Assembly (NCBI GenBank): GCA_000503875.1 | Contig: CP006913.1 | Location: 630,001 to 662,000 of the forward strand | DNA: 32,000 nucleotides | Origin: Candidatus Saccharimonadota bacterium | Lineage (GTDB): Bacteria; Patescibacteriota; Gracilibacteria; Absconditabacterales; Absconditicoccaceae | Direction: 5' to 3' | Part shown: positions 3,059-24,578 of the stretch, in pieces | Layout of the letters: each line of letters opens with the position of its first letter | How positions within the stretch are numbered: the first letter of the stretch is position 1 | Notes under the pieces: model-generated | The model's database searches: none | Told to the model about the DNA's origin: nothing | Seen by the model: the letters and a program-made list of their open reading frames with translations, nothing else | Translations under genes and position numbers: made by a program

Positions 3059-5638
3059 ATGATTAATAACCAAAAAATCTTAAGTAAAGAATCTACAACA
3101 AGCTTATTATACGCAAATACTTTTGCTTTACAAAAAAAACACAAATACATCAATGGGGATGACTTATTTTGATGAATATATCATCATATAAATAATTCAG
3201 AAAATGCTGAACTACTGTATATATTGCTTGGAATTCAAAACATAGATATTCATAAAATATTAGGTGAAAAAGAATATAAGAAATTTTCAACTATCCAAGA
3301 ACATAGTGATACGTACCTAATGTTTCCTAAAAAAATCTATACACAAATCAAACAATATGTAAACACAAAAGATAGAAAAATAACAATTATAGACTTATTA
3401 AATATCTCATTAGAAAATTTGTCTAGTGGATTTAAAAAACACCTTATTAGCAAAGGTATAACACCAAAGACATTAATTAAGAACTGCAAAATGATAGCAG
3501 AAAACCCTATCGTAATAGAACAATGACTATTTGCTTTTCTATGATTTTTGGATAAACTTTTCAAGAAATTACATTTATCTCCAAAAAATATTGAAATCAT
3601 GGATATCAAAAATTTTAGTGATATGGGACCAATTAATATGCTACTCGATGAAGTAGATAAAGAAATAATGGATAAAAACGAATCAAGCATAGGTGACAGT
3701 ACTACCAAAACAGCAAAAAAAGAAGAAAAAAAAATGACTATAGAATACTTTGGAACAGACCTTACTAAGGAAGTTAAAGATCATCTTATCGATCCTGTAA
3801 TAGGAAGAGCAAATGAAATCAACCAAATTATTTATACTCTTTTGAGAAAAAACAAAAACAATCCTCTCTTGATTGGAGAAGCTGGTGTAGGTAAAACTGC
3901 AGTAGTAGAAGGCCTTGCTCAAAAAATAGTTTCAGGAGATGTTCCTGAAAAATTAAAGAACAAGAAAATTTTTATGATTGATATGGGAACACTTGTTGCT
4001 GGTACCAAATATAGAGGAGAATTTGAATCAAGAATGAAAGCTATTTTGGAAGAAGCAACAGATCCATTAAATAACATCATCTTATTTATAGATGAAATTC
4101 ATACTATCATTGGAGCTGGTGGACAAGAAAACAACGATGCCGCTCAAATGATCAAACCACTCCTCTCTAGAGGGAAAATCAAACTTATTGGAGCAACAAC
4201 GTTCAATGAATTTCAAAAACATATTGAAAAAGACGCTGCACTCAAAAGAAGATTTCAAGAAGTTATTATCAATGAACCAAATAACCAAGACACGAAACAA
4301 ATTCTTTTAGGATTACAACAAACCTACGAAGATTTTCATGGTGTACATATCGAAGACAATTGTTTTGATTACGCTATCAATCTTAGCAAAAGATATATTC
4401 TCAACAAACATCTTCCCGATAAGGCATTAGACCTAATTGATGAAGCATGTGCAAAAAAATCAACAATGACGGGTAAATTAGAAAACGATGAAGAATATAA
4501 AAAACAAGAAACCGCTATTCAAGAAATTCAGAAAAAAATTGAAGTAGCCATCGAAAAACAAGATTATTTCGGTGCCGCTGCCTTCAAAGAACAAGAAGAA
4601 AATATCAAAAAAGAAATGTTAGTAATGAGAACACAAAAAAATGTACCAACACATCTTAGACCAACTATCCAAAAAGAAGATATTTGAGTAGTATTAGCTG
4701 AAAAATTAGGTATTCCATCAAATATTGTTAACGAATCTGAAATAGATAAGCTCAGAAGACTAGATGTTGTCCTCAAAAGCCATATCGTAGGACAAGATGA
4801 AGCAGTAGAATCTATTGTAAAAACACTTACAAGAAGCAGACTTTCTGTAGTACAAAAAACCAAACCTATGGGGTCGTTTTTATTCCTAGGGCCAAGCGGT
4901 GTCGGTAAAACGTTCTTAGCAAAACTTATTGCAAAAGAATATTTTGGTGATGAACAAGCACTAATCAGATTTGATATGTCAGAATTTATGGAAAAATATT
5001 CTGTTTCCAAACTTATTGGTTCTCCTGCAGGATATGTAGGATACGATGAAGGAGGAAATTTAACAGAAGCTATTAGGAGAAAACCATATTCAGTTATTCT
5101 TTTCGATGAAATAGAAAAAGCTTCTCCTGATGTCCTCAATATTCTGCTGCAAATCCTTGATGAAGGCCTCCTCAAAGATAGCAAAGGAAGAATTGTAGAT
5201 TTCAAGAGCACAATTATTATTATGACATCAAATATTGGATCTGAAGAATTTGGTAAGAAGCAAACAAAAATCTGATTTTCTGCCGGAGGTACAGTTACTG
5301 AAATCGACGAACAACATTTTCAAGATATCAAAACAAGAGTATTGGAAGAACTCAAAAATTATCTTTCACCAGAACTTATCAATAGAATTGATTACAAAAT
5401 AGTATTCAGACATCTTAGTAAACTCATGCTAACAAATATCATGAAAATAAAACTTAATGAATACCTTGCTGCTCGAAAAGATCAACCAGAAGTTAAAATA
5501 CCAAAATACACCAACAAAAATATCGAAGAAATGATAGATAAGATCTACGATCCTCAATACGGAGCAAGACCTATAGAAAGATATATTCAGGATGTTATTG
5601 AGCCAGAAATTATCAAACATATTCTACAAAAAAAGTAA
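3059..5638 (+). CDS. clpC: ATP-dependent Clp protease ATP-binding subunit, ClpC-like AAA+ chaperone (859 aa)
   Basis: One frame from ATG 3059 joins track ORFs 3224.., 3548.., 4868.. and 5342.. across 6 in-frame TGAs. The N-terminal Clp_N-like repeat reads DDLF[G][G]IYHH, matching HLLLGLL. Walker A motifs are GEAGVGKT and GPSGVGKT; Walker B motifs are ILFIDEIH and [10 protein letters not shown]. There is a short M-domain with the UVR-like [16 protein letters not shown]. The ClpP-docking loop K-I-[TGA]-F equals IGF. The stop is TAA. Confidence 0.9.
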
Positions 5639-5693
5639 AGACCTTGACAATTATCGACAACACATAATAATATGTCTAAAATGATTATATAAT

Positions 5694-5720
5694 AAACCCC
5701 ATAAAAGTGGGGTTTATTTT
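5694..5720 (+). terminator. Rho-independent terminator of clpC
   Basis: AAACCCCA (5694-5701), loop TAAAAG, TGGGGTTT (5708-5715) form a perfect 8-bp stem, followed by ATTTT. Confidence 0.75.
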
Positions 5721-5731
5721 ATGTTTAAATG

Positions 5732-5759
5732 TTGTTTTTTAAGGTAATTTTGATATACA
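5732..5759 (+). promoter_or_regulatory. Candidate promoter of the giant gene
   Basis: TTGTTT (5732-5737), a 16-nt spacer ending in TG-A, then TATACA (5754-5759), which resembles an extended -10. It lies between the clpC terminator and the giant-gene RBS. Weak; AT-rich background. Confidence 0.3.
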
Positions 5760-5785
5760 AAAGCTATCAATTTTTTAGCGAAACC

Positions 5786-5791
5786 AGGAGG
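5786..5791 (+). promoter_or_regulatory. Shine-Dalgarno AGGAGG for the giant gene
   Basis: A perfect AGGAGG sits 7 nt upstream of ATG 5799. That ATG is the first start codon after the in-frame TAA at 5745-5747. Confidence 0.6.
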
Positions 5792-5798
5792 CTTATTT

Positions 5799-5903
5799 AT
5801 GAGGCACGAAAACCGCATAAGATCTACTAAGATACTTCGTTGGGCGTTATGAATATTTTTATATTCATTGCCATTTTTTTTGTACATCGTTTTTACCAAA
5901 GAT
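5799..5903 (+). other. Signal-anchor or signal-peptide-like N-terminus of the giant protein
   Basis: The sequence MRHENRIRSTKILR is followed by WALGIFLYSLPFFLYIVF and then TKD. I see no obvious signal-peptidase or lipobox site. Confidence 0.55.
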
Positions 5904-8900
5904 AATTTTCTTCAAAAAATACAGGCTCAAGAAGAAAATATGCCTCAAAATTTAAGTCAAGAACTTCAAAATTGGGGTATGACTCCTCTTTTGCAAAATA
6001 CAGAAGAAACATCACCAACTAAAGAAACAGAAAAAATAGAAAATATTGAAACAACAAATAGTTCAATTTTTGATTTTTTTAAAAGATTAAATACCGCGCA
6101 AGAAAATTCTCAAAAAAAAGATAAAGAAAAAAATGACAAACAAGATCAAATAACTTGAGATAATCAAACAACTTGAGACAATCAAACAACTTGAGATAAT
6201 CAAAAAAATAAAAACGACGACATACCAAATAATATAGTAGAAGATACGTTAAACTATATTTCAGAAAAATACTATTGATCAGAAAACAACTACTTAGAAG
6301 AAGATCTTTGTTCTTACTGAGAAACAATAATCGTACATCTAACATGATGAACAAATCTTTTACCAGAATATTTATCTTGAAACACTATATACGTAGTAGG
6401 AACATGATCCTATATTTTTGATTATATGCTAAAAATAACCGAAAATTGTACAACTATTATCGGGTTTTCATGAGCAACAACATTTTATACAAAAGATCAA
6501 CAATGAGCAACAATCAAAATAAGTTCATGATCAAATAACATTATAGAAAATCTCTCATTAGAATGAACATTAGATTGAAAATGATGATCACATACAGGAA
6601 ATAACTATGGTATATATATATCTACTACAAAGAATATTATTCATAATATACAAAATTATGACCAAAGAAGGTTTGGTATTTATATGGATTTGTTTGATAA
6701 TAGAATAACAGATACTCATTACTACAAAACAGATCAAGAAATTACAGAACAAGCCACAGGAGACAATAAAGAAACCATAGAAAAACAAAAAGACACAACA
6801 CTAGAAAAAAATATTTTAACCATTCTCCAAGAAAAAGAAAAGAAAAAGAACGATATAGATATTAGACCAAAAGAAGAATTTTCAGCCACAAACGAACCTG
6901 TAAAAGTCAAAAAAGAAAAAGAAATAGCAGAATCAGAATTTTTATGGAAACGTTTTGATAAACAAGAAAACAATTACAAAGGAAAAACATCTCTAGATCT
7001 TTCTGAAAGCGAATGAAGCATTCCTGTTGCCGTAACATTAGAGTCTTTAGATGAGAAAATTAAAGTAGATATACCTGAAGGTACTATATTTAAGACAAAT
7101 GATGGAGAAATATATGATTGAATAATTATAGCACCACAAAAAGATACGCAACATTGATTTTCAATGTCTTGAGGAAAAATAAGAAGTGCAAATGCAATCA
7201 AAATAGGATCTTTAGAAGAATGATTACAATTAGAAAATACCAGTGGCGAATCAGTATATGCAACCGTAGAAATGCCAGTAGATGGGTACAAGTCTGGAGA
7301 TAATGTAAATGTTTATTCTTCAGAAGATGGCGAAAATCGAGAATCTCTTGGTGTTTTTGAAGTACAAGAATCATCATGAGTCAATATTGTACAAGTGCCA
7401 ACAGATCATTTTTCTATTTTTGCAATAGGAAATGTTGTTTGAAATTATTTTAATGGAAGTATAACACTTACTGGTGATGTTCCAGTACGTTTGTTTATAG
7501 GTGAAAGTATAGATTGGTGTGATGTAAACAAAAATTGAACTTTTAGTTTTGCTGACAACCGATATCAATCAGGCATTAGAAGTGTTATTTGTGAAACATC
7601 ACGAAGTTCTGCTTCAAATTTAACAATTTATTTTCGTGTAAGAATTTTTGATGATTGAATCATACCGGAACTTACGAATAAAGATATTCAATTAGTTATA
7701 GCTGGTAGGTATGAAACATGACTTACTAGTACATTTTATTACGATGGTACAGCTCCAATAAATTGATCTTTCAACATAAATAATAATGCTGCAACCACAA
7801 ATAGTACTTCTGTTACTTTGAACACAACATGTGCAACAGACGGTTGAGCTGGATGAGTACAAGTAGCCTTTGGAGAATCTGTAAGTCCATCAAACCGACA
7901 AACTTGTTCAGCAAGTATGGCTTATACATTATCAGCTGGAAATGCGACAAAAACTGTCTATATGAGCTTTAAAGATGCATTGGGGAATACAACAGCTAAT
8001 ATAACTGATACTATATTATTAAGTACAGATTCTACTCCACCAACAACAACAATTGATGCCCCTCCAGACTGAGCATTACAATCATTTCAAATTTTCTTAG
8101 AATTTACTGATTACGATAACATAGCATTATCAACATGTCATTATAATGTTTACAGTTACAATTTGGGTATTGTGGCTTGAGGAATTAGATATTGTAATAC
8201 ACAGCTTGAATTTCTTGATGAATTTCCTGAAGATGATTATGACATTGAGGCATGGTCAGTAGATACCTCAAATAACCAAAGTATCCATGCTCGAAGTAGA
8301 TTTCGTGTAGAATTAACACCACCTACGGGTACTATTTCCATCAATGCAGGAGCTGCTTATACAAACAATGCTGCTGTTACCCTAACATTATCAGCTTCCG
8401 ATGGTTATGGTATTAGTGCCATGATGTTTTCTTGTAATAATTATAACCGAACCAATATTGAAACTTATGCAACAAGCAAATCTTTTAATATGACAAATCA
8501 AGTCAATGCTTGATGTACTACCACTCAATGAACCAAAACTGTTTATGTAATGTACAGGGATAATGCTGGAAATCGATCTACCGCCATAAGTGATACTATT
8601 GTTTATGATACTATTGCTCCTACAAGTACTACTATTTCTATCAACGGAGGAGCTGCTTATACAAACAATGCTACTGTCACCCTAGGATTATCAGCTTCTG
8701 ATACTAATTGAATAACTCAAATGCAATTTTCTTGTAATAATTCTAATCGAACTACTGCCGAAACTTATGCAACAAATAAATCTTTTAATATAACAAATCA
8801 AACTAATGCTTGATGTACTACTACTCAATGAACTAAAACTGTTTATGTAAGATTTAAAGATATTGCTGAAAATCGATCTACTGTTATAAATGATACTATT

Positions 8901-11900
8901 ATTTATGATACTGTTGCTCCTACTGTCACATTAACAAGCTCTGTTTGAACTTATTTCTCTTGATCTAGTTTTATCGTGACTGGTACATTTAGTGAAGCTA
9001 CTTCTAATTTTGTTGTCGGTGATGTTTCTGCTACCAATTGATCTATCAGTAATTTTACAGCGGTAAGTTCTACCGTTTATAGATGGACGATCACTCCTTC
9101 ATGACAAGGCACGGTAAGCTCTTTTGTCGCTGCATGAGTTGCTACTGATACTGCTTGAAATAATAATACAGCTTCCAATACTATTTCTACCACATATGAT
9201 AGTATTTCGCCTTCCCAGCCACCAACATGTACCACTAGTCAGTATTTTTCTAGTTTATTAAGTGTTTTTTGTTCAGCTTCAGAATGAACAATTAAATATA
9301 CTACAAACGGTACAGATCCAACTTGTTCTTCTAGCACACGATTAAATCAATCGTTTTCTCCTACTACTACATTAAGAGTTTGAGCTTGTGATACTGCAGG
9401 TAATATTAGTTCGATAAATAGTTATGTATATAACAAAGATAGCACAGCACCTAGTGGTACCTATAATTTAAACCCAAGTACAGCTACAAATGGAAATGTA
9501 ATAATTACATTTAATCCAACAGATAATTCTGGAGTAGCTAGTGTCCAATTACCAAATAGTACAATAATAACTTGAGGAGTATTACCAACATTGATAAATC
9601 CAAATTCATGGGTATTATGAACAAATTGATCACAATGATCTTTTGGAATATGTTGAACAGCTACAGAAAATACTATAATTTCAAAATCAAATCCACGATG
9701 AATTGCTGATAAAGTTTGGGCATCAGAAATAAATGATCCAGAAAGCAATTCTGATTGATGATGGGATAATTTATCAATTCCTATTGATAAAACAAAGAAA
9801 TATCGTGCTGTTGTTTGGATAAGAAGAGAAAATGTTGGTGATGGAAGAACATATTTTGGAACACAATATAGTCATGTTGCAAATTTAAGTGACGGAAGTC
9901 AGAATGATAATCCTTATTTTTGATATCCAGTAGTAAGTGATATACCTGAAATAAAAGATAACTGGTTATTGTTTGTAGCATATATTCATCCATACGCATA
10001 TGCCGGCGCATCTTCAGACCCTACATCTTGAATATATACTCTCGATGGAAGAAAATTATCCTATTGATTAACAGATTTTAAACGAACATCTACAGCTACT
10101 TTATGATGACAGAGAACATATTTATATTATTCTACTTCAACAACTGAAAGACAATATCGATATAGACCAAGATTTGAAGTTGTTGATGGTACAGAACCAA
10201 CAATAGATCAACTATTAAAAGGTAGTGAGAAAGCTAATTCCCTTACATATACAGTAAGTACAAATGGAACCTATAATTTTATAGTTAAAGATCGAGCAAA
10301 CAATAGTGCTACGATAGGAGCTAATGTTGCCAATATAGACAAAACTGCTCCTACTATAGCTCAAATAACTGCTGTTCCAACACCTAGTAATGATACAACA
10401 CCAAGTTATACATTCTCTTCAAATGAAGCTTGAACAATAACTTATTGAGGGAATTGTTCTTCTGCTACTACTTCAGCAATCAACGGCAATACTACAGTTA
10501 CATTCAATACTTTAGCAGCTTGAACATATAGTAATTGTACTATCAGAGTAACTGATGCTGTTTGAAATCAAAGCAATATAATAACAGTCAATACTTTCGT
10601 TATTGATACTGTTGCTCCTATAACAAACATCAATTCTCCAGATGAATGAGTTTGGCAAGGCAGTTATACTATGTTGGAACTTACTGATCATGATGAGGCT
10701 GGATTTTTACAAGCATGTTATTATACGGTTTGGAATGACCAAAGTTTAGAAATATACAATGAAGAAAGATATTGTAGCGATGGTTGAACAACCAATGAAA
10801 TCGAATTAGATTGAATTTGTACAGAGACACAATGAGCATGTACTGTAGAAGCATGGGCAGTAGATGTAGCTGGTAATGTATGAACACATGCAATAAGAAA
10901 TTTTTATGTTGACACAACAGCCCCTACATATACCTGGAATAGTCCAACAGCATGATGACGATATAAAAGTGGATCTATAATACCTATAGATATAACTACA
11001 ACAGATCGATGAGTAGGAATAACAAATTGAACAACATGTTATGTATCTATAGATTATAGTAATTCCTCTTTTACCCCAACTACATTAACATATAATAGTA
11101 CAACACAAAAATGTACAGGAAATATTACATTAAAAAATACATTAACTAATGGCTCTCATAATCTTTCTATAGTTGTATATGATAGTTTAAACAATTGAGC
11201 TTATGCACCCAACAGGACAATAAATATTGATAATACAGCACCTAACTTTATTTTTGCAAATGTTTCGTGATCAGAATGTACTGCTTGATCTTTGTCTATT
11301 ACTAATATTAATGATTGAACTGGTGTTTGATTACATGCTACTCCTTATAGTTTCAATAACAGCACATGGTCTACTACAACAAGTACAGGAATTGCTGCTA
11401 GCCAAGCAAATGTAGTTGTTGTTAGAACCTGACGAGTGAGAGATACCTTATTAAATTCTTCTTCTAAAACTGCTACCTATACTTTCAATAATAGGGTACC
11501 CACTGCTTCCAATTTCACAGGACATGCCTCTGTTTGAAACATTGCGAGAACTGTTAGTTGGAAGACATTATCTTCAGTCAATGAATGAACGTGTTGAAAT
11601 ACAGACATTACTTATAGTGGTATCGTTACTCAATGAACGAAGGGAATATGTTCTATAGTCGGAGATAATATCACCTATACACCAAATACCAATCAAATTG
11701 GTATAGATTCTTGTACTATCCAAGTCAAAGATAACGAAAATTCTACAGTAAATATAATAGTTTGACGAGAAGGAATAGATACGGATGGTCCAACAGCAGC
11801 ACCATCATGTACACTTAGCCAATATTTTTCATGAACTATAGCAGTTACTTGTACCGTATGAGCTGGTGGTACACAAATCAGATATTCAACTAATTGAGTA

Positions 11901-14900
11901 GATCCTAGTTCTACTGGTACTATTTGGTCTAATCAATCATTTTCTTCTAATACAACTCTCAAAGCAATATCTTGTGATGCATTAAACAATTGTTATCTTA
12001 ATACTGTTGAAACAGAAATTTATACTCTAGACAATCTTGCACCTATTTCTTCTATATCTGACACAAATAGCAACTGGAGAAATACAGATCTCACATTTAC
12101 AACAACAGGTACCGATGCTTGAGTAAAATGAGTATCACTTTTTTATAAAATACTTTCTGGAGATCTAACGTGTAGCGCATGATGATTTACAAGTTATACC
12201 TACCCTACTGCTATATCAGTTACAGGAACAACATCACAAGCATTGTTAAGAACAGTTTGTTTTTATAGTACAGACTCATTGGGAAATACAGAAACTATAA
12301 ATAAACAATTATATAAAATAGATATGTCTAATCCTGCAATAACTGCTCCTGTAATATATTGAGGAACATATTTTGGTACATATTTTAAATGAGCAATCGA
12401 TTTGAGATCATCTATATCAGATATCTGAGCAGGAATATTAGCTTCAAGTTGTATGAGAAGTATCAATGCTGCTGCTTTTACAAATGTATGAGTAACTCAG
12501 GACGCTTCTTATTGTATATATAACACGTACAATCCTGCAGCAAGTTTCAATATCAAGTTATTGGTAAAAGATCAAGCAAACAATACAGGAACAAGCTTAC
12601 AAAGTGATTTCATCTATGATACTACAGCACCTACTATATGATTACCAGCTATCTATGCAGGCACAACACATACAACGTATTATAAAGGTACTATTAGTAT
12701 CCAATCTACAGCAACTGATGCTTGATCAAACATTAACAGCAGCACATGTGAATACTCAATTAATAATGGAACATCATGGTTAGCTGGAACATATGCTTGA
12801 TGATATTGTCAGATAGCAAATATTAGTCCAGCAACAAATCTCCAAATACTTATGAGAGCAAGAGATAATCTAGGGACAACAGGAACATCTTCTCTCAAAA
12901 CATATACCTATGATGCCACTGCTCCTATAACTACTAATAATGCAACAAGTTCTCGAACAAATACAGATCAAACAATAACATTAAGTCCTACTGATGCTTG
13001 AGCTGGTGTAGCTAACACCTATTATTGTATCACTACTTCTTGATGAAATTGTACATCTAATATACTATGAACTTCTATACTAGTTACTGGTAATGTAAAT
13101 GAAATAACAAGCAAACAGATAAAATACTACTCTACGGACAATCTCAATACTGACGAAACAATCAAAACTTCTGTAGTTATCAATATAGATAAACAATGAC
13201 CAAATATAGAACTTTTATCACCAACAAGCTGAAGTTCTTTTGAAGAATGAGACACAATACCATTAATATGGTCAGGAAACGATGAAACAGGAATATGAAT
13301 ATCAGGATATAAATATGAAATATATAATTCAATCAGTTCTTTAGTAGCAAGCGGAACAACCACAAATACATGAATAACACTTTCTTGATTTACTGAAAAT
13401 TCTTATACACGAAAAATTATTGCATATGATCTATTAAACAATACATCAGAATCAGAAACTTGATCTTTTATTATAGAATCATCAATTTTTGTAACCATTC
13501 CAAATACAACAGACACGGGAATAATTATTGATGCATTTACCAATAAAGAGTATATAGAAACTATAGACTGACTTTTTTGATATAAACCATTAAATTTTAG
13601 AAATACCAATACGGTATGTCCACAAATACCTATATTTTTTCAATCAACTTGAGATATAGAATGAAATAATATAAATATAGAATTTCCATGATGTTTTTCT
13701 GTAAAAACTATAGCATGAGATTTCTCATGAATCATTGAAACACCAACAATAGAAACAGAAATAACAGCATTTAGTTTAATAAATAATACCAAAGATAATA
13801 TCGTTTCCGTAGGAACATCGTGAGAACAAATATTTTTTGTAGATAACACAGAAGATCCTCTAAATGTAAAAGTTCGTATACCAACTCCATCAAAAGAAAT
13901 ATGAACAACTATGGAAATACATTCATCACAAGATGGACAACAACGAGAATATTTTGGAACAGGAATTGTTTCTTTACGAAGCGGAGAAAAATACACCATA
14001 TTTGAAACAAATCATTTCACCTATTTCACTATAGGTACTACAACATGAAATTTTGTAATTAACAATGACGAAACAAGTACTCTATCAAGAAATGTAACAT
14101 TACAAATGAACGTAAGTTGAGCTACTCACATGAAATTTTGACATTCTACAGGAGAAGCAGAATCAGCTTCTTGGATAGGATATAGTTGAACATATCAACG
14201 AGAACTTACAGAGTTAGCATGAACAAAAACAGTATATGCAATGTTTACTGATGGAATAGATACATGATATGTAAGTGACGATATCTTATTAGATACTACA
14301 CCACCTACAGGTATATTCAGTATAAATTCTGGAGATATTTTCACAAATTCTACAGGAGTTACACTCGTCAGTACAAATATATCATGAGCAAATTTTATGA
14401 GATTTGCTAATTATTGATATAGCTTTGATGATTGGTGGAATTTTGCTAACTATACATGATGGTATATTACTCCTTGAGATAATATAAAAACAATCAGTTG
14501 AGAATTTAAAAATAATGCAGGAGATCTCTTTTCTATATCTGATTCTATTATATTAGATACACAAGCTCCTGAAAGTTCTCTTTTTTCATGGGCTAAAAAA
14601 GCTGGTAATAGTAGTTATGAATATTGAAAATGAATAGCCACAGATAGTGGTGGTAATTCTTATATAGTCTGACTTTTCGACCGACAAGCATCTTTTTGAT
14701 CTATTAATTTAGTTAGTTTTTGAAGTGCAGATGCTTTTATTGCCAAAATATCTTCTACAGGACAGTTTCTTCGAGCTAAAAATGCTGGTGGTACCAGTTC
14801 TGATAATTGATATTGAGTATCAATAGATAGTAGTGGTAATTCTTACATTGTCTGAAATTTTCAATGAACTTGATATTTTTGATCTATTCAATTAGTTAGT

Positions 14901-17900
14901 AGTTGATCTAATTCTAATGTTTTTGTTGCCAAAGTATCTTCTACAGGACAATATATTCGAGCTCAAAATGCAGAGGGTTCTTTTTATTGATATTGAATAT
15001 CCACAGATAGTGGTGGTAATTCTTATATCATCTGAAATTTTGAATGAACGTGATATTTCTGATCTATTCAGTTAGTGAGTACTTGATATAATGATATATT
15101 TGTTGCTAAAATATCCTCTACGGGACAATGGTTATGGGCTCAAAGTGCTGGTGGAAATGATAATGATTCTTGACAATGAATAGCCACAGATAGTGATGGT
15201 AATTCTTATATCATTTGATCTTGTGCAAGAACGGTATATTTCTGATCTATTCCATTATTTAATAGTCCACGAAGTACAGATGCAGTTATTGCCAAAATAT
15301 CTTCTACAGGGCAATGGTTATGGGCTCAAAAAGCTGGTGGGACTAGTTTTGATAATTGACAATGAATAACTATAGATAGTGGTGGTAATTCTTATATCGT
15401 CTGAGATTTTGGTTGAACGTGATATTTCTGATCTACTATGTTAGTAAGTACTTGAAATTCTGATATATTTATTGCCAAATTATCTTCTACATGAGAATAT
15501 CTCCGAGCTCAAAATGCAGGAGGTACTGATAATGATCGTTGACAATGAGTATCAATAGATAGTGGTGGTAATTCTTATATCGTCTGAGATTTTGGTTGAA
15601 CGTGATATTTCTGATCTACTATATTAGTAAGTACTTGAAATTCTGATATATTTATTGTCAAATTATCTTCTACATGAGAATATCTCCGAGCTCAAAATGC
15701 AGGGGGTACTGATTATGATGTTTGATTTTGAATATCCAATGATAGTAATTGAAATATCTACGCTGTTTGAATTTTATATTGAACTTCATATTTTTGACCT
15801 ACTATATTAATTAGTTCTTGAAGTTCTGATATCTTTGTCGCCAAAATATGATCTTCTGATACCAAAGCTATATTTAGCATAAACAACGATGCAGCATCTA
15901 CTACATGAACAGCTGTAACTTTAAATATAACTTGTCCTACAGATCAACGATCTCCTATACAAATTGCTTACTGAGATACTTCTACTCCAACTAATCGAAC
16001 GACATGTACTTCATCAATAAATTATACATTACCTATCTCTAGTGGAACAGGAACAGTCTACGCTAGATTTAAAGATGGTGGAGATAATATCACAACAACT
16101 TATTCTGATGACATTACTCTTATTGATACTGAAGGACCTAGTCAATCAAACATTTATTTACCACAAAACAACAGCAATATATTTCTTGGAAACAATAGCA
16201 TCAAATGGAATACGTCATTTGATACAGTTACGGGGTTAAGTGGATATATTCTCCAAATAAGCAACGATAGTTTTTCTTCAATACAAAAGGAAATTTCAAC
16301 AATATATACTGACTACACAGAAAATTTCACAACAACAGGAACATATCAATTAAGAATTCTGTCTATTGATAATGCTGGTAATACAACAACAGGAAACAGC
16401 ATACAAATCAACGTTCAAGATAATATCATTGAATATTATTTTGGTAGTGGTAGTAAATTCACAGAAAATTGGCAATCAAATAATTGTAATACAGGAGACA
16501 TAAGTATTGTATACGTATATAATTATTCTGGATATGGATATTTTCCATATACTAATTTGTGATCAAATAAAATATATATTCTCCAAGAAGGCGCTCATAT
16601 TGCAAACAATCAAATCACATTCAATGGTAATTGTATCGCATTAGTTTGAGAAAATCCTTATCAAGGAGAACAAAAAACAACACTATATACAAATAGCCAA
16701 TTAACAAATGCTATTTACGCCTATCAAAAAAACAATATTATTATCGACAATATTCAATTAGATGGAGCAAAAAATGGTTTATGAGGGACACATACAGCCA
16801 ATAATAATTGAATCAATCGAAATCAAACAACATCAACTACAATAAACAACTTTTCAGTATTTTCATTCTGAACGTATGGAATATATTACAATTGAAATAA
16901 TTATTGAGCAATAAATACAATTAATATTTACAAAAATTGATACGGAATATATTTAAATTCATCTACTAATAATCAAATAGAAAATATACAAGTATTTAAC
17001 AATACTTTTGGTATGCGATTAAATTATTCAAATATAAATACTTATAATAATAGTAAAATTTTTAATAATACAAGTTATTGAATTTATTTATGAGCGAGTT
17101 CATATAATATATTTAATAATAGTATTTTCCAAAACAATAATGTTTGATTATCTGCAAATGAATGATGAACTACATATCTTTTTAATTCTAATATTAGCCA
17201 AAACACAACAAAAGGAATTGAAATAAACAATGCTTATGTAATAACAATGGATACAAGCATAATTTGAAATCAAGACAAAGATATATTTAAAGATGCTAGA
17301 GGCTGAATATTAAAATATTATGGATATCTAAAAACAAACACTATCGAGAATAATACATTAATAATTTGAGGGAATGATCTATCATGAATAGGTATATCTT
17401 CAGGACATATTATTTATGATGATAGTAACTCTTATAACGACAAAATTAACATAAAAAATCAATCATGAATATATTTATATAATTGGTTAAATCCCGTTTA
17501 TTGACGTAATACTAATCGAGAATTTTTATCTTGAACGCTTTCTTTTGGAAAAAATATACCAACAAAAGAACAACCAATAAAACGGTCAGGAACAAATTTA
17601 GTAAGATATACCTCTCAATTTACTGATACGACAACAAACGAATTTATTTCTTCAAAAGTCAAAAAAACAGAAATAACATCTTCTATAGACAAACAAATAA
17701 CAACTTGAGATAATCAAAGGATATTTACTATTAGTTGAGATAACATTTTTTATACAATTACATGAAATATTTCTCAAGAAACATGATGATATATTTCAAC
17801 AACTCAAAATATTCCATTAGTACTCTTTTGATGAGAAGAGAAAAAAAGAATAATAACACAGACTGAAAAGAATTGAACAAATTGAATGACTCATTATGAA

Positions 17901-20900
17901 ACTATTTCAATTGTTGATATAACACCACCAACAACACCACAAAATGTATTTATAAAAAATATAACAGCAACAACTGGTATTGTAATAGAGCGAAGCCCTA
18001 GTATAGATAGTTGAGCAGGAATAAGCTGATATTTATATCAAATAAGTACTGCTTCAGACTTTTCTACAATACAACAATACGGAACAACACAACAAACAAC
18101 AATAACAGTAGAATGACTACAAGAAACAACCCAATATTATGTGAGAGTAAAAGCAATAGATAAAGTAAATTATGAATCAGATTGGAATGATAGCCTTTCT
18201 TTTATAATAAGCGAAGAAATTGAAAATTTAGTGACAGATTTCTACTTCGGATCTGGCAATGTATTTACAACAACATGGAATTCTCAATGTGATCCAGAAC
18301 AAATACAAGTAATAAAAGTTCCTAATTATCAAAATTTGGGAAATAATATATTTCCTTATACTACATTAAATACAAATACTATATATTTATTAGAAGAAGG
18401 TATTCATATATTAGGAAATAGTATAACATTTAACGGAGAATGTAGCGCACTTGTAGGAAAAGGAACAAAAGATAATATATTAGGAAAAGTTGAACTATAC
18501 AGTAATGCTACATTAGCAAATATGATAGTGATAAATTGAAACAAAAGAATTATAGATAATATAATAATTGATTGAATAAACAATGGCGTATGATGAACCC
18601 ATAGTTACAACAGCTACTGAATAATATGATCTTCTGTTACAAACAATAGTATATTCAATATTTCATTAAAAAACATCTATTCAGCAAACCTTCAATTAGT
18701 CAACAGTACAAACAACAAAATAAAAAACGTAAATATTTCTAATATTTGAAATAGTGTTTATGGAATACAAGCAAATAATGCTGATGGAAATATTCTTGAA
18801 CACATTAATGTATACAATAATACATATAATTGAATCGTTTTAGAGAATTGATCAAACAACAATATACTAAATAATGTAAATATTTTTAATAATAATAATG
18901 TTGTTTCAAATTGATTATATTGAATAGTAATAACAACAAGTTCTTCTTATAACGCAATAAATAATTGTCAGATATATAACAATGGAAATTTCGGTATACG
19001 ATTATGAAGTGACTATAATACAGTAAACAATTGTGTGATAAACAACAATGAACAATATGGTATTGTAGTGACAAGTAATTATAACATATTAAGTGATATT
19101 ATTTCATTAAACAATGTGGGAGCTGATATTTTTACAAATAACTCAACTACAAAGATTTACAATACTATTGAAGCACAAAAAACTGATACAAAAAATTTCT
19201 TAATATGAGGTGATGAACTTGCTAATATATTATTATTCACAGGAAAAATAGATATAAAAACAAATAAAAATATTTCTTGGAATAAAATGATAAATGTCAT
19301 AAATTTAGATAGTAACAGATATTTATCTCCCCGAATAAATATATTTCGTTGACGCAATAGCACACGAACAACGACAGGAAACAATATTGAGTTTTCTTTA
19401 GGGCAAGATATATTATTACAAAAACCTGTAGTATATTATTCATGAACAACATTACAAATACACACTTGATCAGAAATAGTAGAATGGGAATCAACTAAAT
19501 TTGTAGGTACAAAAGTCACAAAAACTAATGTTAATATAAATATAGATGAAATATTTTCATCAACAGCAGATAATGACAGGACAATAACTATTCAATATCC
19601 ATGAGTAATAAATTATTTTATCACTGGAGACATTACTCAAGCATATAATTGAACCTTCAGCAATGAAACGGGTATTAATATAACACTTTCATGAAATACA
19701 GAATGAATAAGAAATATTATCATACAAACACGAATAACATCATGAGAAAAAAATCATACCCACATAAAAACATATATAGATGAAACAGTTCCTACAAAAC
19801 CAACAACATGAAATATTTCCCGAATATCATCAGACAATGATAATATAGAATTCTTTTGGAATAAAGGATATGATAGTGGAAGTGAAATATCTGGGTATTA
19901 TTATGAAATAGCTTCAGAAAATTCTTTTTCTCTATTACTTAAAACCGGATTTACTGAATATAATACAATTCAAATACTATGAGTTTCTTGACAAACAGAA
20001 TTATTTGCAAGAATAAAAACTATAGATACAACAAACAAAGAATCTGATTGGTTAATAATATGAGGAAATATTAATTCTATCAAAGATCAAAATAAAACTA
20101 TTATTTCAAAATACCTATCTCCTCAAAATTATTATACAAAAAATCGAAATAGTTTTTGATGTACAAATACAGGACAAACAAAAATATTTATACTACAACC
20201 GGAAGTAAACAAGGATTTTTTCTTTGGACATGTAAATGAAAATAGTATATATTTACTAAAGGAATGAGTTTATAATATCAATGATAGTATTTCTTTCGAA
20301 GAATGATGTACTGTATTAGCAAAAGAAGAAACTTCAAATAAAGTAAAAATACTTAGTGCAAGAAGGTTACCAAGTCTTATTTCATTAATAATAACGAATA
20401 ACAATATCATTGAAAATATAATACTAAATGGTGAAATGGATAAAAGTTCAACGATTCATGCAAGAAACAATGCAAACATTTACACTATAGGAGCTAACAA
20501 TAACTCATTATACGGATTAGAGATGTTATGATGAACAAATGGTATTTATCTTTATTCAACATCTAGTTACAATTCTTTAGAAAATATATTATGTTATAAG
20601 AATACGTATTGTGCCTATATCTATTGATGAGGAAACTATAATATATTCAATAATGTTATAATGCATAATAATTACCATTGAATACACGTACGTTGACCTT
20701 GATATAATACATTCAATAATATGTTAAGTTTTAACAACGATAGTTGAATGTGATTCAGTTCATCTCACAATAGAAATGTAATATCTAATTCAATATTTGC
20801 TAATAACAGTGCATATTGAATATCTTCAACAGATGGTGCATTAAATACTTTTGATATTTTATCAAATGTAAGTTTCATAAATAATTGAAATATGGATATA

Positions 20901-23579
20901 TACACGACAAGTAGCAGTTTTCTAAAATATTATAATATTGCTACATGAGTAACTATTGGAAATAATGCATTACAAGGAACTGGAGAATTTGTTTATTTAT
21001 GATGGAAGACAGGTCAAAAACTAACTACAAATACAAACGAATTTTTAAATAACTCCATAAATGTTTTAGGAAATAAATATTTATGGCCTCGATCAAATAT
21101 TACTCGTGGACAAATTGCATCATGGAATTATGCAGATACAATGACAACATCATTTGGACAAGATATTCCAATACAAATACAACCAGTAAGACGAAGTTGA
21201 TCTACACTTGTTTATTACTGAACATCAGGAACAGATTGGAACCAAAATTATTTTATTTGATCAAAGACACTTCCAACCAAAATAGATGTAGAAATAGATA
21301 AAGCTATTAGTGATAGTAGTGATACATCAAGAACAATTCTTCTTTCATGACAAGGAACATTCAATTATGCTATAAGTTGAAACCTAACAACAAATCCATC
21401 ATGATCTTTTACAGACAATACATCTATACCTGTTACATTATCATCATCAGCTGATGGAGCAAAAAACATTATAGTACAAATACGAACAGGACAAAATAAT
21501 CCAACTCATTATCAACCAGTAACATTTGTAGATTCAGCACCTCCTACGACACCGCTACCAATTCAACCTTTACAAAATTATACAGGTTACGCTAATTTTG
21601 TAACAGCAAATATAGATTTTGAATGGTTTGCAAGTACCGATGATGGAATAGGAATGAGTTGATACGTATTGGAAATCAGTACAGGAAATGATTTCTCTAC
21701 AATACTTTATCGTAGTACAGGATATACGACAACAAAAACAGTCGCTCTCAAAGAAAACACCTACTATTGGAGAGTTAGAGCTTTTGATAAAGCATTAAAA
21801 TATTCTCTTTATAGTGCAACCTGGTCATTTAATGTTGAGACTAACTTCACCCAAGAATATGACCCACCTAGTGTACCAACAATAAGCTATCCAAGTAACA
21901 AAACCGTATTTAATACAACAGGCATGAATATACTATGGACGGCAAGTACAGATACAGGAATTTGATTGAGTTGATACATATACCAAATAAGTACAAATAT
22001 CTGATTTACAAACATTATTTTATCTTGATCAACAATAGAAACAGGACAAACCATAGCAAATATAAATGATTGAATTTATTATACAAGAATTGCAGCTAGC
22101 GATTATCTAGATAATATAAGTAATTTTTCAAATACGATCGAATTTAGTATTGATACAACGAATCCTACAATTATTTTCACTTGATCAACTCCATCAGACA
22201 ATGCTATTATAACAGGAAACACCTTCTCTGGACTAGCAGAAATCACAGAAGAAAACTTAAATATACTGACACAAAACCGAAATGGAACTAACTATCCTAT
22301 CTATGATAGTTGACTTGTTTTAATGATGAACTTTGATAATAAACTATGATTGGGTGAAACAACTTGATGAATTATCAAAGATTTTTCTCAATATTGAAAT
22401 CATGGAACAGGATATAGCGGAGTTACTCGAACTTGAAATGGTAAATTTTGATGAACTTATGTTTTTGACGGAATAAATGATTATATGCAAGTTAAAAAAA
22501 ACAATACAGATATTAAAACATGAAGCATATCTATAAGTTTTTGGATAAAATCTCAAACTTGAAATAACAAAATTATCATTTCAAATTGAAACGTTCATGC
22601 TGGATGTATTTCTTATTGAGAATGATTTGAAATAATAAAAACAAACAATGGATATAATTTTGGATTATGTAAATTATGAAAATGATACAAATTATTAGAT
22701 TCTCCTATAATAGACTCAAATGACAATAAATGGCACTTTGTTACAACTATTTTTGATAGTCAAAATCAAAAAATGTTGGTATATATAGACGATTTACCCG
22801 CAACAGAAACATCAACAAATTATTGAGGGGATAATATTATCTGAGATTTAGGTTTTATAAATATATGATGACGAACAATAACTAGTTATTTATCTTGATC
22901 AATTGATGAAGTCCGTATCTATAACCGTGCCCTTTCATCCTGAGAAGTACTTCAACTTTATAGAACAAATCTCTCAAAAACAGATACAGACAAATGGCAA
23001 TTCACGACACAACAACAATGTCTTCCTGATTGAGCATATAATTACAGCGTAACAACAACTGATGCGGTAAACAATAGTATTTCAACAGGTAGAAATCTGA
23101 GTATTCAACTTCCAAATCCAACTATAGGTACTCCTCTTTACGGACTTAATTTACCATCAATAGCAAGTGCTAAACAAGAAACAGAAATCATAGAAGATTT
23201 TTCATGAGCGGATAATACATTCCGAGTCTATGATACCAAAGGATATACAGGATGGTACAGTACAATCCAATTATCTTGAAGCTTAAGTAATCAAGAATGA
23301 ACATTATCTATACCACAAGAAAATATCGAGTTTAAAGCAAACAATGCTATTACCACATTGGAAGGTATTCCATCATCATGAGTAACCCTCGCAACAGGAA
23401 TAAATGAATACAAAGCAATGACAGGAATTTATAATTATATGGTCAAAAACATTACTCCAGAATGTTCTTCGTGTATCATAGGTAAATATGGTAACAATCC
23501 TTCATTAAAAATAACAATTCCTGCTTATCAAAAGCCTGATTTATATAATGGAACGTTGATATTTACTCTCTACAATTAA
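5799..23579 (+). CDS. Giant (5,926-aa) N-terminally membrane-anchored multidomain surface protein; putative adhesin or glycan-binding protein
   Basis: I translated frame 0 by hand codon by codon from 5748 to 23579. There is no TAA or TAG between ATG 5799 and TAA 23577-23579, and about 290 in-frame TGAs. The N-terminus MRHENRIRSTKILRWAL[G]IFLYSLPFFLYIVF has a basic n-region followed by a hydrophobic span. Recognisable extracellular modules run the whole length (see sub-features), and at least 17 module junctions have the form [IVLY]D-x-x-[AP]P. Many TGAs fall on motif glycines, for example D-S-G-G-N-S-Y-I-V-[G], GKF[G][G] and [G]SIDEVRIYNRAL. Confidence 0.9.
6153..6206 (+). repeat. Three copies of an 18-nt in-frame tandem repeat (ACTTGAGAyAATCAAAmA) encoding T-G-D-N-Q-T
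   Basis: The copies are at 6153-6170, 6171-6188 and 6189-6206, and the G is a TGA codon. The 16-mer ACTTGAGATAATCAAA recurs in frame at 17703-17718. Confidence 0.9.
8319..8918 (+). repeat. Two copies of a 300-nt tandem duplication, each encoding one Ig-like 'ISINxGAAYTNN...GTKTVYV...D.A.N.S' module
   Basis: Copy 1 (8319-8618) reads PPTGTISINAGAAYTNNAAVTLTLSASDGYGISAMMFSCNN...AGCTTTQGTKTVYVMYRDNAGNRSTAISDTIVYDTIA. Copy 2 (8619-8918) reads PTSTTISINGGAAYTNNATVTLGLSASDTNGITQMQFSCNN...AGCTTTQGTKTVYVRFKDIAENRSTVINDTIIYDTVA. The DNA is roughly four-fifths identical by eye. Confidence 0.85.
9219..9440 (+). other. Chitobiase/beta-hexosaminidase C-terminal-like (Fn3-associated) domain, copy 1
   Basis: PPTCTTSQYFSSLLSVFCSASEGTIKYTTNGTDPTCSSSTRLNQSFSPTTTLRVGACDTAGNIS fits the I-x-YTTDGS-x-P...ttlka-a-D-aGN-S pattern. 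Confidence 0.55.
11802..12035 (+). other. Chitobiase/beta-hexosaminidase C-terminal-like domain, copy 2
   Basis: PSCTLSQYFSGTIAVTCTVGAGGTQIRYSTNGVDPSSTGTIWSNQSFSSNTTLKAISCDALNN is a paralogue of the 9219-9440 segment. Confidence 0.55.
12036..13190 (+). other. Run of about four OmpL47-like / Ig-like modules
   Basis: A recurring pattern is W(R)-N-T-D..T..T..DAG-x-G..-Y...G......YYSTD-x-x-GN-x-E, for example SRTNTDQTITLSPTDAGAGVANTYYCITTSGGNC...SKQIKYYSTDNLNTDETIKTSVVINIDKQGP. Family assignment is from memory only. Confidence 0.45.
14589..15860 (+). other. Seven-blade SBBP-type beta-propeller repeat array
   Basis: There are seven units of about 60-61 aa of the form [WR]A[KQ]xAGGxxxDxGxG[IV]xxDSxGNSYIVGxFxGTGYFGSxxLVSxGxxDxF[IV]AK[IL]SSTG[QE][WYF]L. 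This is the canonical SBBP motif (G-x-D-x-G-x-GIAVD-x-x-GN-x-Y-V-T-G...DAFVAKL). My hand count is 46 TGA and 28 GGN glycine codons in this segment. Confidence 0.8.
15375..15713 (+). repeat. Near-identical direct duplication of one propeller blade (period 183 nt)
   Basis: 15375-15530 and 15558-15713 are 156 nt each and differ at 3 positions (G/A, C/T, A/G), so they are about 98% identical. Confidence 0.9.
16125..21530 (+). repeat. Three tandem supermodules of about 1.8 kb, each an FN3-like domain, a conserved Cys-bracketed head and a right-handed parallel beta-helix (PbH1-like) region
   Basis: The supermodules span 16125-17915, 17916-19778 and 19779-21530. Each opens with W-x-x-S-x-D...SG[IL]SGY-x-[LY]-x-I[SA]. 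Next comes YFGSG..F...W.S..C....FPYT.L..N.IY.L.EG.H......F.G.C.ALVG. After that come N/I/Y-rich turns of about 22 aa, such as NN-x-I-x-N-x-x-x-x-x-N-x-YGI-x-L. A shorter fourth copy of the helix head lies near 6290-6720. Confidence 0.65.
21531..22170 (+). other. Two FN3-like domains
   Basis: The first reads FEWFASTDDGIGMSGYVLEISTGNDFSTILYRS...YYWRVRAFDKALKYSLYSATWSF. The second reads ILWTASTDTGIGLSGYIYQISTN...YYTRIAASDYLDNISNFSNTIEFSID. Confidence 0.55.
22302..22964 (+). other. LamG / concanavalin-A-like lectin domain (Laminin_G_3-like)
   Basis: The segment contains LVLMMNFDN...DFSQYGNHGTGYSGVTRTGNGKFGGTYVFDGINDYMQV...ISISFWIKS...NKWHFVTTIFDSQNQKMLVYIDD...LSGSIDEVRIYNRALSSGEVLQLY. These are the hallmark GKFG-x-A-x-x-FDG, W-H-x-V and IDEVRIYNRALS-x-x-E strings. 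Confidence 0.75.
23196..23576 (+). other. C-terminal WxL-like domain (tentative)
   Basis: DFSGADNTFRVYDTKGYTGWYSTIQLSGSL...GTLSIP...IPAYQKPDLYNGTLIFTLYN* resembles the F-x-V-x-D-x-R-G...GW proximal motif and the Y-x-G-x-L-x-W-x-L distal motif of Gram-positive WxL surface-anchoring domains, but with F in place of W. There is no LPXTG and no C-terminal TM. Confidence 0.35.
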
Positions 23580-23606
23580 TAACCTCAAAAAAACAGCCTC
23601 TAAAAT

Positions 23607-23634
23607 TTGCTTTTTTAGAAAAAAGATTTATACT
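23607..23634 (+). promoter_or_regulatory. Candidate promoter for the TIM-barrel gene
   Basis: TTGCTT (23607-23612), a 16-nt spacer, then TATACT (23629-23634), about 40 nt upstream of ATG 23673. The same hexamer pair occurs at 28077-28106. Confidence 0.35.
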
Positions 23635-23672
23635 TTAGGACGATTATCTATTTATTACATAAAACAAAAAAA

Positions 23673-24539
23673 ATGGCTGATATCTTCTTCGATATGGAAG
23701 AACCAACAAACGGGAAAGAGAACAAAACTCCAGAAAAAAACAAAAAGGATTGATCTCCTAAGTTTTTGATGAGCAGTGATGCTTTTTCCAATTGTGGACT
23801 TGATTTAATTTTTGAATTAACAAAAGAAGCCGGATTCGACTGATTAGATTTAGCTATATGGAAAAATTTTGATGCTCGAAACGTAGATTACGTGAAAAAG
23901 CTATCAAAAAAGCATGAATTACCAATCAAAGTTATCCAAGTATCAGAAAATATAAATCAAAAAGAATTAAACAAAGCCTTAGATCTTTGTGAAGCAACAG
24001 GTGCCGATACAATTACAATCAATGCTCCAAAATTTTTCAATATGAAATCATTTAACTTTTTGGAAGATAATCTAGAAGCTTATAAAAAAGATAACAAACA
24101 TATTCATTTCAGTATTATCAATCCTGAAGATTCCAATGTATTTGCGCTTCCAATACCTAAATATCGTTTTACTAATATTGTAGATATCATCAAAAAATAT
24201 GGATGTTACCTAGGATTGGATATTGCAAATTTTGATGCGGATGTTTTGGAAAATGATTTTACAAGAAAATTATCATCATTTCTCCCCTATATATCAGTTC
24301 TCTATTTCTCAGACAAAAATAGAGTTGGTGATGGGCATCTCCTTCCTGGAGAATGAACATTAAAACTAGAAAGCTTTCTCAAAAAGATAAAACAAATAGG
24401 ATTTAACCGCTATTTCAGTAGCAAAGTAATCATAAGTAAATCAGATTTAGCTGATTCAGAAAAACTAGCAACTATCCTCAAAAAAATAAGAAATTATTAC
24501 AAAGAACAATTCGAAGATCTTACCATAGATGAAGATTAA
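23673..24539 (+). CDS. Xylose-isomerase-like TIM-barrel protein (sugar phosphate isomerase/epimerase / AP-endonuclease-2 superfamily), 288 aa
   Basis: A frame from ATG 23673 joins to track ORF 23892..24356 and continues to TAA 24537-24539, with 3 in-frame TGAs. The motifs are EAGFD[TGA]LDLAIW (the canonical aGFDGvEl) and GDGHLLPGE[TGA]TLKLESFLKKIKQIGFNRYF (H-x-P-x-G-x-G-x-i...l...gy-x-g). Confidence 0.65.
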
Positions 24540-24542
24540 TAG

Positions 24543-24575: not shown

Positions 24576-24578
24576 ATA

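Follow-up and report, generated by a model that had tools for sequence, protein, structure and literature searches.

Coding sequence and reading frame

The 32,000-nucleotide (nt) stretch analyzed here, referred to as the window, covers positions 630,001 to 662,000 of contig CP006913.1 and is dominated by a single giant gene on the forward strand, which occupies 55.6% of it (GC content, 29.8%) and encodes a protein of 5,926 amino acids (aa). Four flanking proteins exactly match AHB41378, AHB41380, AHB41382, and AHB41386 of candidate division SR1 bacterium RAAC1_SR1_1, the complete genome of which comprises 1,177,760 bp, and because of these exact matches the giant gene can be placed between locus tags G0587 and G0589; judging from these two neighbors, its own tag would be G0588. 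It is the largest gene in the complete 1.18-Mb genome and takes up ~1.5% of its length, a substantial commitment for a genome of reduced size. Its neighbors in the window encode Clp, an AP_endonuc_2 TIM-barrel protein, trigger factor, MutL, FKBP, and a hypothetical protein.

A first-pass annotation, made from the sequence alone, had read positions 5799 to 23579 as one gene of an SR1/Absconditabacteria genome translated with table 25. Both the coordinates, which are exact, and the reading held. The frame has no TAA or TAG codon and contains 289 TGA and 51 TGG codons, and the closest in-frame stop on its 5′ side lies at position 5745. The five alternative frames of the same interval carry 173 to 396 TAA/TAG codons apiece, with a longest open run of 205 codons, and ~388 stops would be expected from the base composition, giving a log10 probability of approximately −174 for the absence of any stop. 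The GC content at third codon positions ranged from 0.11 to 0.17 across all twelve 1.5-kb blocks of the gene, and the coding signal is therefore even along its whole length. In the flanking pyruvate formate-lyase (PFL) and MutL genes, TGA aligned to a glycine of PDB homologs in five of the six alignable codons, which, along with the matches of the flanking proteins, indicates that TGA is a sense codon decoded as glycine (code 25) in this gene and its neighbors. The residues T, N, S, I, and G are abundant in the giant protein, and TGA accounts for 52.7% of its glycine codons (289/548) versus 18% (37/205) in seven flanking housekeeping genes. This excess may reflect the expression level or a local A+T pressure.

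The gene caller applied to an independent MEGAHIT contig put the start at Met48, which would give 5,879 aa, but the start at Met1 is favored because it is preceded by a Shine-Dalgarno sequence and because residues 1 to 47 are conserved in an ortholog, L001, the N terminus of which matches from M1.

That the frame might stem from a chimeric assembly or an expanded repeat, or might be a pseudogene in decay kept open only via TGA, had to be considered, since its 289 TGA codons would break it under the standard code and tandem repeats are present within it. Besides the verification of code 25 on the neighbors, the improbability of such a frame, and the uniform coding signal, this explanation is countered by the divergence of the internal tandem arrays, the copies of which match only 77 to 82% at the DNA level, and by homologs that share the N- and C-terminal modules. 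Furthermore, contig k127_922976 of ENA assembly ERZ936476 (MEGAHIT, 287,776 bp) is 100% identical to positions 1 to 15638 and 13673 to 32000 of the window; as these two blocks together span the gene, we rejected the artifact explanation, which is effectively refuted by the identical contig and the diverged repeats and is now exceedingly improbable. The 17.8-kb frame is one real, intact gene.

Module map and the CBM-like domain

The protein consists of ~45 beta-rich modules of binding type, and the folds detected with Pfam and NCBIfam were exclusively of the extracellular type (Table 1). The architecture proposed in the first-pass annotation held nearly throughout when compared with Pfam, NCBIfam, and self-profiles, including the immunoglobulin (Ig)-like, Big_12, Big_13, Big_9, OmpL47, and SBBP modules, the two chitobiase-C modules, the fibronectin type III (FN3) modules joined to beta-helices, and the LamG domain. 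A recount by self-profile likewise gave seven propeller blades, two CHB modules, and two DHF-type domains.

TABLE 1 Positions of the features in and around the giant gene, numbered from the first nucleotide of the window
Feature	Position	Strand	Basis or detail
Shine-Dalgarno AGGAGG	5786-5791	+	7 nt 5′ of the ATG at 5799; read from sequence
Giant coding sequence	5799-23579	+	ATG to TAA, 5,926 sense codons, 643 kDa, pI 4.7, code 25
Basic stretch and 21-residue hydrophobic segment (aa 12-32)	5799-5903	+	Candidate Sec signal peptide or signal-anchor
Spacer 1, low-complexity N/Q/T/E/K	5904-6248	+	Composition; includes tandem repeat 6145-6204
Truncated beta-helix-like module (aa 154-297)	6258-6698	+	Paralog of the start of supermodule 1
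Spacer 2, K/E-rich	6711-6995	+	Composition
"DHFSIFAIG" domain, copy 1	6996-7448	+	Paralog of aa 2607-2752; also in P0126
Ig-like run	7773-9191	+	INxGAxYTN...KTVYV type at aa 659-748, 847-941, and 947-1041; then Big_12 at aa 1037-1131
Chitobiase/hexosaminidase C-terminal-like module 1 (~aa 1154-1206)	9216-9443	+	PF13290 (CHB_HEX_C_1), E 3e-6, 27.5 bits (cut-off 22)
CBM-like beta-jelly-roll (aa 1263-1476)	9585-10226	+	Homology and model of a homolog
Big_13 Ig-like module (~aa 1531-1604)	10341-10613	+	PF19077, E 3.1e-7
Big_9-like module (~aa 1917-1984), then chitobiase-C-like module 2	11547-12035	+	Big_9 23.0 bits, just below the 23.6 cut-off; paralogy
Two OmpL47-type modules (aa 2092-2176 and 2385-2465) with two Ig-like modules between	12072-13193	+	NF047446 and paralogy
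"NHFTYFTIG" domain, DHF-type copy 2	13617-14054	+	Internal comparison
Seven-blade SBBP beta-propeller (aa 2941-3357)	14619-15869	+	PF06739, E 4.2e-12; seven 59-61-aa blades
Three FN3 + right-handed beta-helix supermodules, ~590 aa each	16146-21563	+	PF13229, fn3, paralogy
Two FN3-like modules	21576-22148	+	Internal comparison
LamG/concanavalin-A-like lectin domain (~aa 5557-5717)	22467-22949	+	PF13385 (Laminin_G_3), E 1.6e-17, 64.5 bits
C-terminal WxL-type domain (aa 5770-5926), end ...GTLIFTLYN	23106-23576	+	Transitive homology

The three supermodules, each composed of an FN3 module, a beta-helix, and a following beta region, are 30 to 39% identical to one another; two of them matched PF13229 above its 25.9-bit cut-off (E values of 7.5e-12 and 3e-11), and the third scored 23.8 bits (E value of 3.8e-5). 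The fn3 model of Pfam was matched with an E value of 3.6e-7, and internal comparison revealed six FN3-like modules in the protein. The truncated beta-helix near the N terminus gave no direct match in a Pfam search, and its assignment, already made in the first-pass annotation, is borne out by internal BLAST, in which aa 154 to 297 aligned with aa 3543 to 3698 of a supermodule at 32% identity (E value of 1.4e-12). The two members of a tandem Ig pair share 72.6% protein identity and match at 82% of their DNA, and the second OmpL47-type copy (~aa 2389 to 2458) scored 42.3 bits against NF047446, the cut-off of which is 40 (NCBIfam). The propeller has a DNA period of 183 nt with 77% matches, and its SBBP repeats are sufficient in number to close a propeller. 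The DHF domain found no match in Pfam, among PDB sequences, or in phages (tblastn). In spacer 1, an 18-nt tandem repeat at positions 6145 to 6204 (3.3 copies, 92% matches) encodes TGDNQT units and is a candidate length-variable site.

The segment at aa 1263 to 1476, for which no Pfam, NCBIfam, or PHROG model matched, had ~100 relatives in a homology search. Most of them are prepilin-type proteins of Saccharibacteria, ~335 to 340 aa long, that begin with GFTIVELLVVI... and match PF07963, and in these pilin-like proteins the domain forms the C-terminal 210 aa (36 to 42% identity, ~99% coverage). Further relatives are Bacteroidota proteins of ~350 to 370 aa from Pedobacter, Puteibacter, and Ulvibacterium, and three relatives of similar length have a type IX secretion system sorting domain. 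Around the gene of a domain-bearing Saccharibacteria pilin we found no pilus-machinery operon, and therefore this context gave no functional information.

The same domain is present in phages. A tblastn search with the giant protein's own domain hit 18 phage genomes at 100% coverage and 36 to 37% identity (E value of 3e-33). In Vibrio phage F86, it forms the extreme C terminus of the 1,042-aa virion protein VPHF86_0276, the gene of which lies between those for a "tail fiber protein" and a "long tail fiber protein distal subunit," and in the N4-like phage SBP1 (Vibrio virus vB_VspP_SBP1) it lies within the 925-aa tail protein gp062. The proteins of phage tail-fiber clusters and the heads of Saccharibacteria pilins thus have one ~210-aa domain in common with the giant protein, at 31 to 42% identity over ~100% of its length and with the same predicted CBM-like jelly-roll fold, whereas no other part of the giant protein matched a phage. 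In the pilins and in phage F86, the domain stands at the distal tip. A match of the domain to picornavirus VP2 in a PDB sequence profile search (E value of 0.018) was weak and was judged nonsignificant.

The fold was modeled with AlphaFold2 on P0022, a homolog 55% identical to the domain, using a 101-sequence alignment; an earlier model of P0022 from a 7-sequence alignment had a predicted local distance difference test (pLDDT) score of 45 and was unusable. The final model, with a mean pLDDT of 83.6 and values of >90 across most of the domain, is an all-beta sandwich, consistent with the jelly-roll that the first-pass annotation had suspected at ~9580 to 10200. Its best PDB folds in Foldseek were the carbohydrate-binding modules (CBMs) CBM4-2, CBM22, and CBM16 (E values of 2e-6 to 5e-4), with target-normalized template modeling (TM) scores of 0.55 to 0.67 at 10 to 14% identity and no Pfam CBM match. 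Viral models in BFVD, including those of a "tail family protein" and of "tip attachment protein J," were far more similar, with query-normalized TM scores of 0.69 to 0.77 at 24 to 36% identity. Homology and modeling together indicate that aa 1263 to 1476 represents an unnamed CBM-like domain family. Where the context is known, the carrier of this domain is an extracellular, target-contacting protein.

The carbohydrate-related modules raise the question of whether the protein is enzymatic. A surface-displayed scaffold for polysaccharide degradation, similar to a cellulosome or a polysaccharide utilization system, would have the beta-helices act as pectate-lyase-type or depolymerase enzymes, with the CBM-like, chitobiase-C, and LamG modules targeting plant or microbial polysaccharides for feeding. 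Such a scaffold would suit the three right-handed beta-helix regions with their pectin-lyase fold (PF13229 and NosD), the CBM4/22/16-like fold, and the CHB_HEX_C and LamG modules, but we consider it unlikely. No catalytic glycoside hydrolase (GH), polysaccharide lyase (PL), or carbohydrate esterase family was detected in the protein with Pfam and NCBIfam, and for the beta-helices the sole matches were to the generic repeat models Beta_helix and NosD, with none to a catalytic PL or GH family. Beta-helix supermodule 1 found no homolog among PDB sequences, and the beta-helix supermodule gave no PHROG match and no phage match in tblastn, where a depolymerase might have appeared, and a PHROGs scan with six pieces of the protein also gave no match. 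Moreover, the CBM-like domain is most closely related to pilins and phage tail proteins rather than to enzymes. The attack on other cell envelopes that the first-pass annotation had listed among the possible roles is unsupported for the same reasons, as there is neither a detectable catalytic family nor a solved or phage depolymerase homolog of the beta-helix.

Conserved termini and variable relatives

The N terminus carries an export signal. Residues 12 to 32, preceded by R/K residues, constitute the sole segment of the protein with a Kyte-Doolittle hydropathy above 1.6, and a candidate signal-peptidase site, IQA|QEE, follows at aa 43/44. This site lies within the block KIQAQEENMPQNLSQELQN (aa 39 to 57, positions 5913 to 5969), just after the hydrophobic segment, which is 100% identical in L001, whereas the spacers around it are only 20 to 45% identical. 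We searched the protein for an LPXTG-like motif and for a C-terminal hydrophobic segment and found neither; as the LPXTG motif is absent, we rejected the idea that the protein is a sortase substrate. The sequence thus has an N-terminal export signal and, as judged by hydropathy, no second hydrophobic segment. The description of the protein as membrane-anchored in the first-pass annotation goes too far, given that the N terminus may be a cleaved signal peptide.

The C-terminal tail may be related to WxL domains, although not by a direct match. The tail (aa 5715 to 5926) did not match the Pfam WxL model PF13731 at an E value of ≤1 or any NCBIfam model; a word-indexed search with a 202-aa tail sequence returned no relatives, two scans of metagenome contigs with tail alignments gave no match, and a PDB sequence profile search gave chance-level matches only. 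The last 65 residues contain no TGA-encoded position and could therefore be used in an exhaustive phmmer search, which found 22 proteins; in all of them, save four low-identity proteins with multiple matching stretches, the match lies at or within a few residues of the protein's own C terminus. P0138 and P0143 are secreted proteins of ~190 aa with little beyond the tail domain, and P0138 passes PF13731 with 29.9 bits (cut-off, 25) over HMM positions 44 to 211 of 214. BLASTP aligned the giant tail with P0138 at 34% identity over 130 aa (E value of 1.5e-17). These comparisons point to homology of the tail with the WxL family, transitively via one bridging sequence, so that the WxL-like tail of the first-pass annotation stands through P0138 and not through any Pfam or NCBIfam match of its own. 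As in large WxL proteins, the domain is the last in the chain and is preceded by a series of Ig, FN3, beta-helix, and LamG modules.

Two ways of holding the protein on the cell are suggested by these termini. Either the C-terminal WxL-type domain would bind the cell's own wall, with cleavage at IQA|QEE, or an uncleaved N-terminal helix would act as the anchor, with the low-complexity spacers leading through the wall.

The ends of the protein are also its most conserved parts. In L001, where identity is 86% for the upstream Clp ATPase, the first 733 aa of the giant protein are matched at 51% identity, with the truncated beta-helix and the first DHF domain each reaching ~80%, and an FN3 module and LamG follow directly. 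Another homolog, L002, aligns to aa 1704 to 2548 and then skips to an FN3 module and the same terminal domain, which is 44 to 50% identical; in the 918 aa of it that are available, we found no match to aa 5557 to 5700 (LamG), the propeller, or a beta-helix. Two SR1/Gracilibacteria-type proteins, P0125 (at least 1,216 aa, probably truncated at its 5′ end) and P0126 (1,550 aa), share the tail, and P0126 also has the same type of N-terminal anchor, a DHF domain, OmpL47/FN3 modules, and LamG-type regions, the latter called from one weak Pfam match and from similarity to the sequence flanking the giant protein's LamG. The tails of P0125 to P0127 are 56 to 67% identical to that of the giant protein over the whole tail and 61 to 80% over the last 65 residues. 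Conservation peaks at the 19-residue block after the hydrophobic segment, the truncated beta-helix, the first DHF domain, and the tail. Overall, the N-terminal base (aa 1 to 550) and the tail are kept across the relatives, whereas the spacers and the middle vary in content and order, a pattern that fits a use of the ends for export and retention and of the middle for specificity.

This variability bears on the possibility that the protein forms a structural, S-layer-like coat of protective or shape-giving function. Propeller, Ig/PKD-like, and beta-helix domains are combined in archaeal S-layer proteins (Jing et al. 2002, as cited in PMC3812714), and the conserved termini and the acidic pI of 4.7 are in keeping with a coat. 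However, the module content differs strongly among close relatives, which is unexpected for a lattice protein, and the TGA share of glycine codons, 53% versus 18% in housekeeping genes, would not suggest a very highly expressed gene. The presence of a binding domain of the phage-tail/pilin-head type also argues against a coat, which we therefore regard as improbable.

Public records obscure this family. Those of P0125 to P0127, P0129, P0135, and P0139, relatives from code-25 organisms, have TGA translated as Trp, leaving W where Gly is expected, e.g., YTWWYTTIQLSW, and the NCBI fragments HCY211xx carry gene calls with TGA as a stop. Because of the Trp translations and the TGA-as-stop calls, the family is hidden from ordinary homology searches.

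Proposed function and comparison with known systems

Absconditabacteria and other Candidate Phyla Radiation (CPR) bacteria depend on attaching to other cells, and to our knowledge, the molecules by which CPR bacteria choose their hosts are largely unknown. We think it probable that the protein described here is a Sec-exported, giant fibrillar surface adhesin, retained at the wall or membrane, whose several heads would bind glycans or surfaces and so touch a host or prey cell or a polysaccharide surface. After Sec export via the N-terminal signal, the chain of ~45 beta-rich modules would project from the SR1/Absconditabacteria cell envelope, held by the C-terminal WxL-type domain on peptidoglycan and/or by the uncleaved N-terminal helix with the spacers running through the wall. 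Heads that recognize envelope glycans of the partner cell may be provided by the CBM-like domain, both chitobiase-C modules, the propeller, all three beta-helices, and LamG, and the specificity may evolve through module shuffling. The localization, the ligand, the topology, and the link to a host or prey are steps that we infer. A role in host recognition is also an inference, strengthened by the homology of one module to phage tail proteins and pilins. By analogy from the literature, adhesins are required for epibiotic growth in Saccharibacteria.

The closest known layout is that of the large WxL proteins (Lwp/CscC-type) of Lactobacillales, Listeria, and Enterococcus, which have a signal peptide, beta-rich adhesion domains including a beta-helix, and a C-terminal WxL domain (PMC9772566, PMC10599100). 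In Firmicutes, the large WxL genes are clustered with genes for small WxL and DUF916/DUF3324 proteins, and the WxL domain in every case lies at the C terminus and is considered to keep the protein attached to peptidoglycan (PMC9772566, PMC10599100). The giant protein has in common with them an export signal, a near-continuous linear beta-rich chain with beta-helix and Ig/FN3-like modules, and a wall-binding-type domain in the last position, here a tail homologous to a protein that passes the Pfam WxL model. On the other hand, it is 6 to 12 times longer (5,926 aa versus 500 to 1,000 aa), the hosts of the known proteins are Firmicutes rather than a code-25 member of the CPR, its hydrophobic segment is long enough for an anchor, and the spacing of ~100 residues between the two motifs of its tail is nearer to that of small WxL proteins (~106) than to that of large ones (~68). 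The giant protein resembles the large WxL proteins in layout but lacks several of their defining features, and it is a much enlarged, multidomain protein of the surface-adhesin type.

Several observations weigh against a wall-held adhesin with a host-binding head. The WxL link runs via P0138 alone and is a single bridge, because eight other relatives of the tail give no WxL match. The Trp of neither WxL motif is conserved: motif 1 has W5819 in the giant protein, R in L002, and G in P0125 to P0127, and motif 2 reads F-T-L or Y-T-L. A search of the window for partner genes encoding small WxL, DUF916/DUF3324, or LPXTG proteins found none. The 21-residue hydrophobic segment and the low-complexity spacers would suit an N-terminal anchor, in which case a wall-binding C terminus would be distal or looped back. 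The CBM-like domain is internal in the giant protein and not terminal as in the pilins and phage F86, and predation is known only from Absconditabacteria other than RAAC1_SR1_1.

Giant surface proteins as such have been in print for this lineage since 2013. Kantor et al. (2013) (PMC3812714) described genomes encoding concanavalin/lectin, pectin lyase, fibronectin III, beta-propeller, and PKD proteins, with surface-type proteins "up to 5,900 amino acids," and Moreira et al. (2021) (PMC8080830) reported a Vampirococcus membrane proteome "enriched in giant proteins" of 1,392 to 4,163 aa, proposed for host recognition or attachment. The statement in the first-pass annotation that this combination belongs to no described family must therefore be narrowed, as the domain types, the size of 5,900 aa, and giant attachment candidates had all been published. 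Neither the gene nor its broad interpretation is new, in contrast to the module-level dissection. With its 5,926 aa, its single N-terminal hydrophobic segment, and its FN3, propeller, lectin-type, and Ig-like modules, the protein belongs with the giant envelope proteins of Absconditabacteria. The giants of Vampirococcus lugosii, from the same phylum, are likewise predicted in the envelope, have fibronectin and beta-propeller-type repeats, and have been proposed for host attachment (PMC8080830); the protein here is larger than any listed there, and the likeness drawn here is one of size, predicted location, and domain content. The Omnitrophota giants of West-Roberts et al. (2023, bioRxiv 10.1101/2023.11.21.568195) are likewise very large multidomain proteins of putatively predatory, small-celled bacteria; the abstract deals with proteins that exceed the ~40,000-aa titin, far beyond 5,926 aa, and the title implicates them in cell wall degradation, whereas no catalytic module was detected in the protein here.

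What is new here is the occurrence of a binding head of the phage-tail/pilin type together with a WxL-type tail in a CPR lineage; in the literature searched, we found no paper linking WxL with the CPR. The dissection recasts a "hypothetical protein" as two testable pieces, a candidate target-binding head and a candidate wall-binding tail. If the head binds a host glycan, it would offer a handle on the hosts of uncultured SR1 and Saccharibacteria and would link recognition by phages with that by epibionts; if it does not, the protein would simply join the large surface proteins whose general type is already known. A more far-reaching version of the adhesin model, which we put forward tentatively and hold to be doubtful, is that the CBM-like domain is a mobile receptor-binding head passed among phage tail fibers, Saccharibacteria pilin tips, and SR1 giant adhesins. 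CPR epibionts and predators would then share a class of host-recognition modules with phages, and the giant protein would be a primary, quickly reshuffled determinant of host range, held on the cell by a CPR variant of the wall-binding WxL domain that lacks Trp.

On either side of the giant gene, the intergenic regions showed a few signals. Between clp and the giant gene (positions 5644 to 5718), there is a near-consensus promoter-like site, TTGACA and AATAAT separated by 16 nt (11/12 matches), and a 12-bp terminator-like hairpin lies just 3′ of it at positions 5691 to 5718. This order, promoter and then hairpin, is odd if the hairpin ends clp and the promoter serves the giant gene. Downstream, a search for a terminator-like site between the giant stop codon and the next gene (positions 23580 to 23672) found none, and the giant gene may be cotranscribed with this next gene, which encodes the AP_endonuc_2/xylose-isomerase-like TIM-barrel protein (positions 23673 to 24539).

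Searches of the window for tRNA genes and Rfam families found none. On the same contig, 5′ of the window, a region (L010, positions 1 to 9428) encodes acetate kinase, a PduL-type PTAC, a formate/nitrite transporter, PFL activase, and PFL; it matches the PFL fermentation cluster of Kantor et al. (PMC3812714) and confirms the genomic setting. A 725-aa open reading frame at positions 29157 to 31334 had no Pfam match, yet full-length members are kept in related assemblies. Finally, the MutL protein (positions 26147 to 27997, minus strand) contains a Gly-rich, low-complexity linker, and many of its glycines are encoded by TGA.

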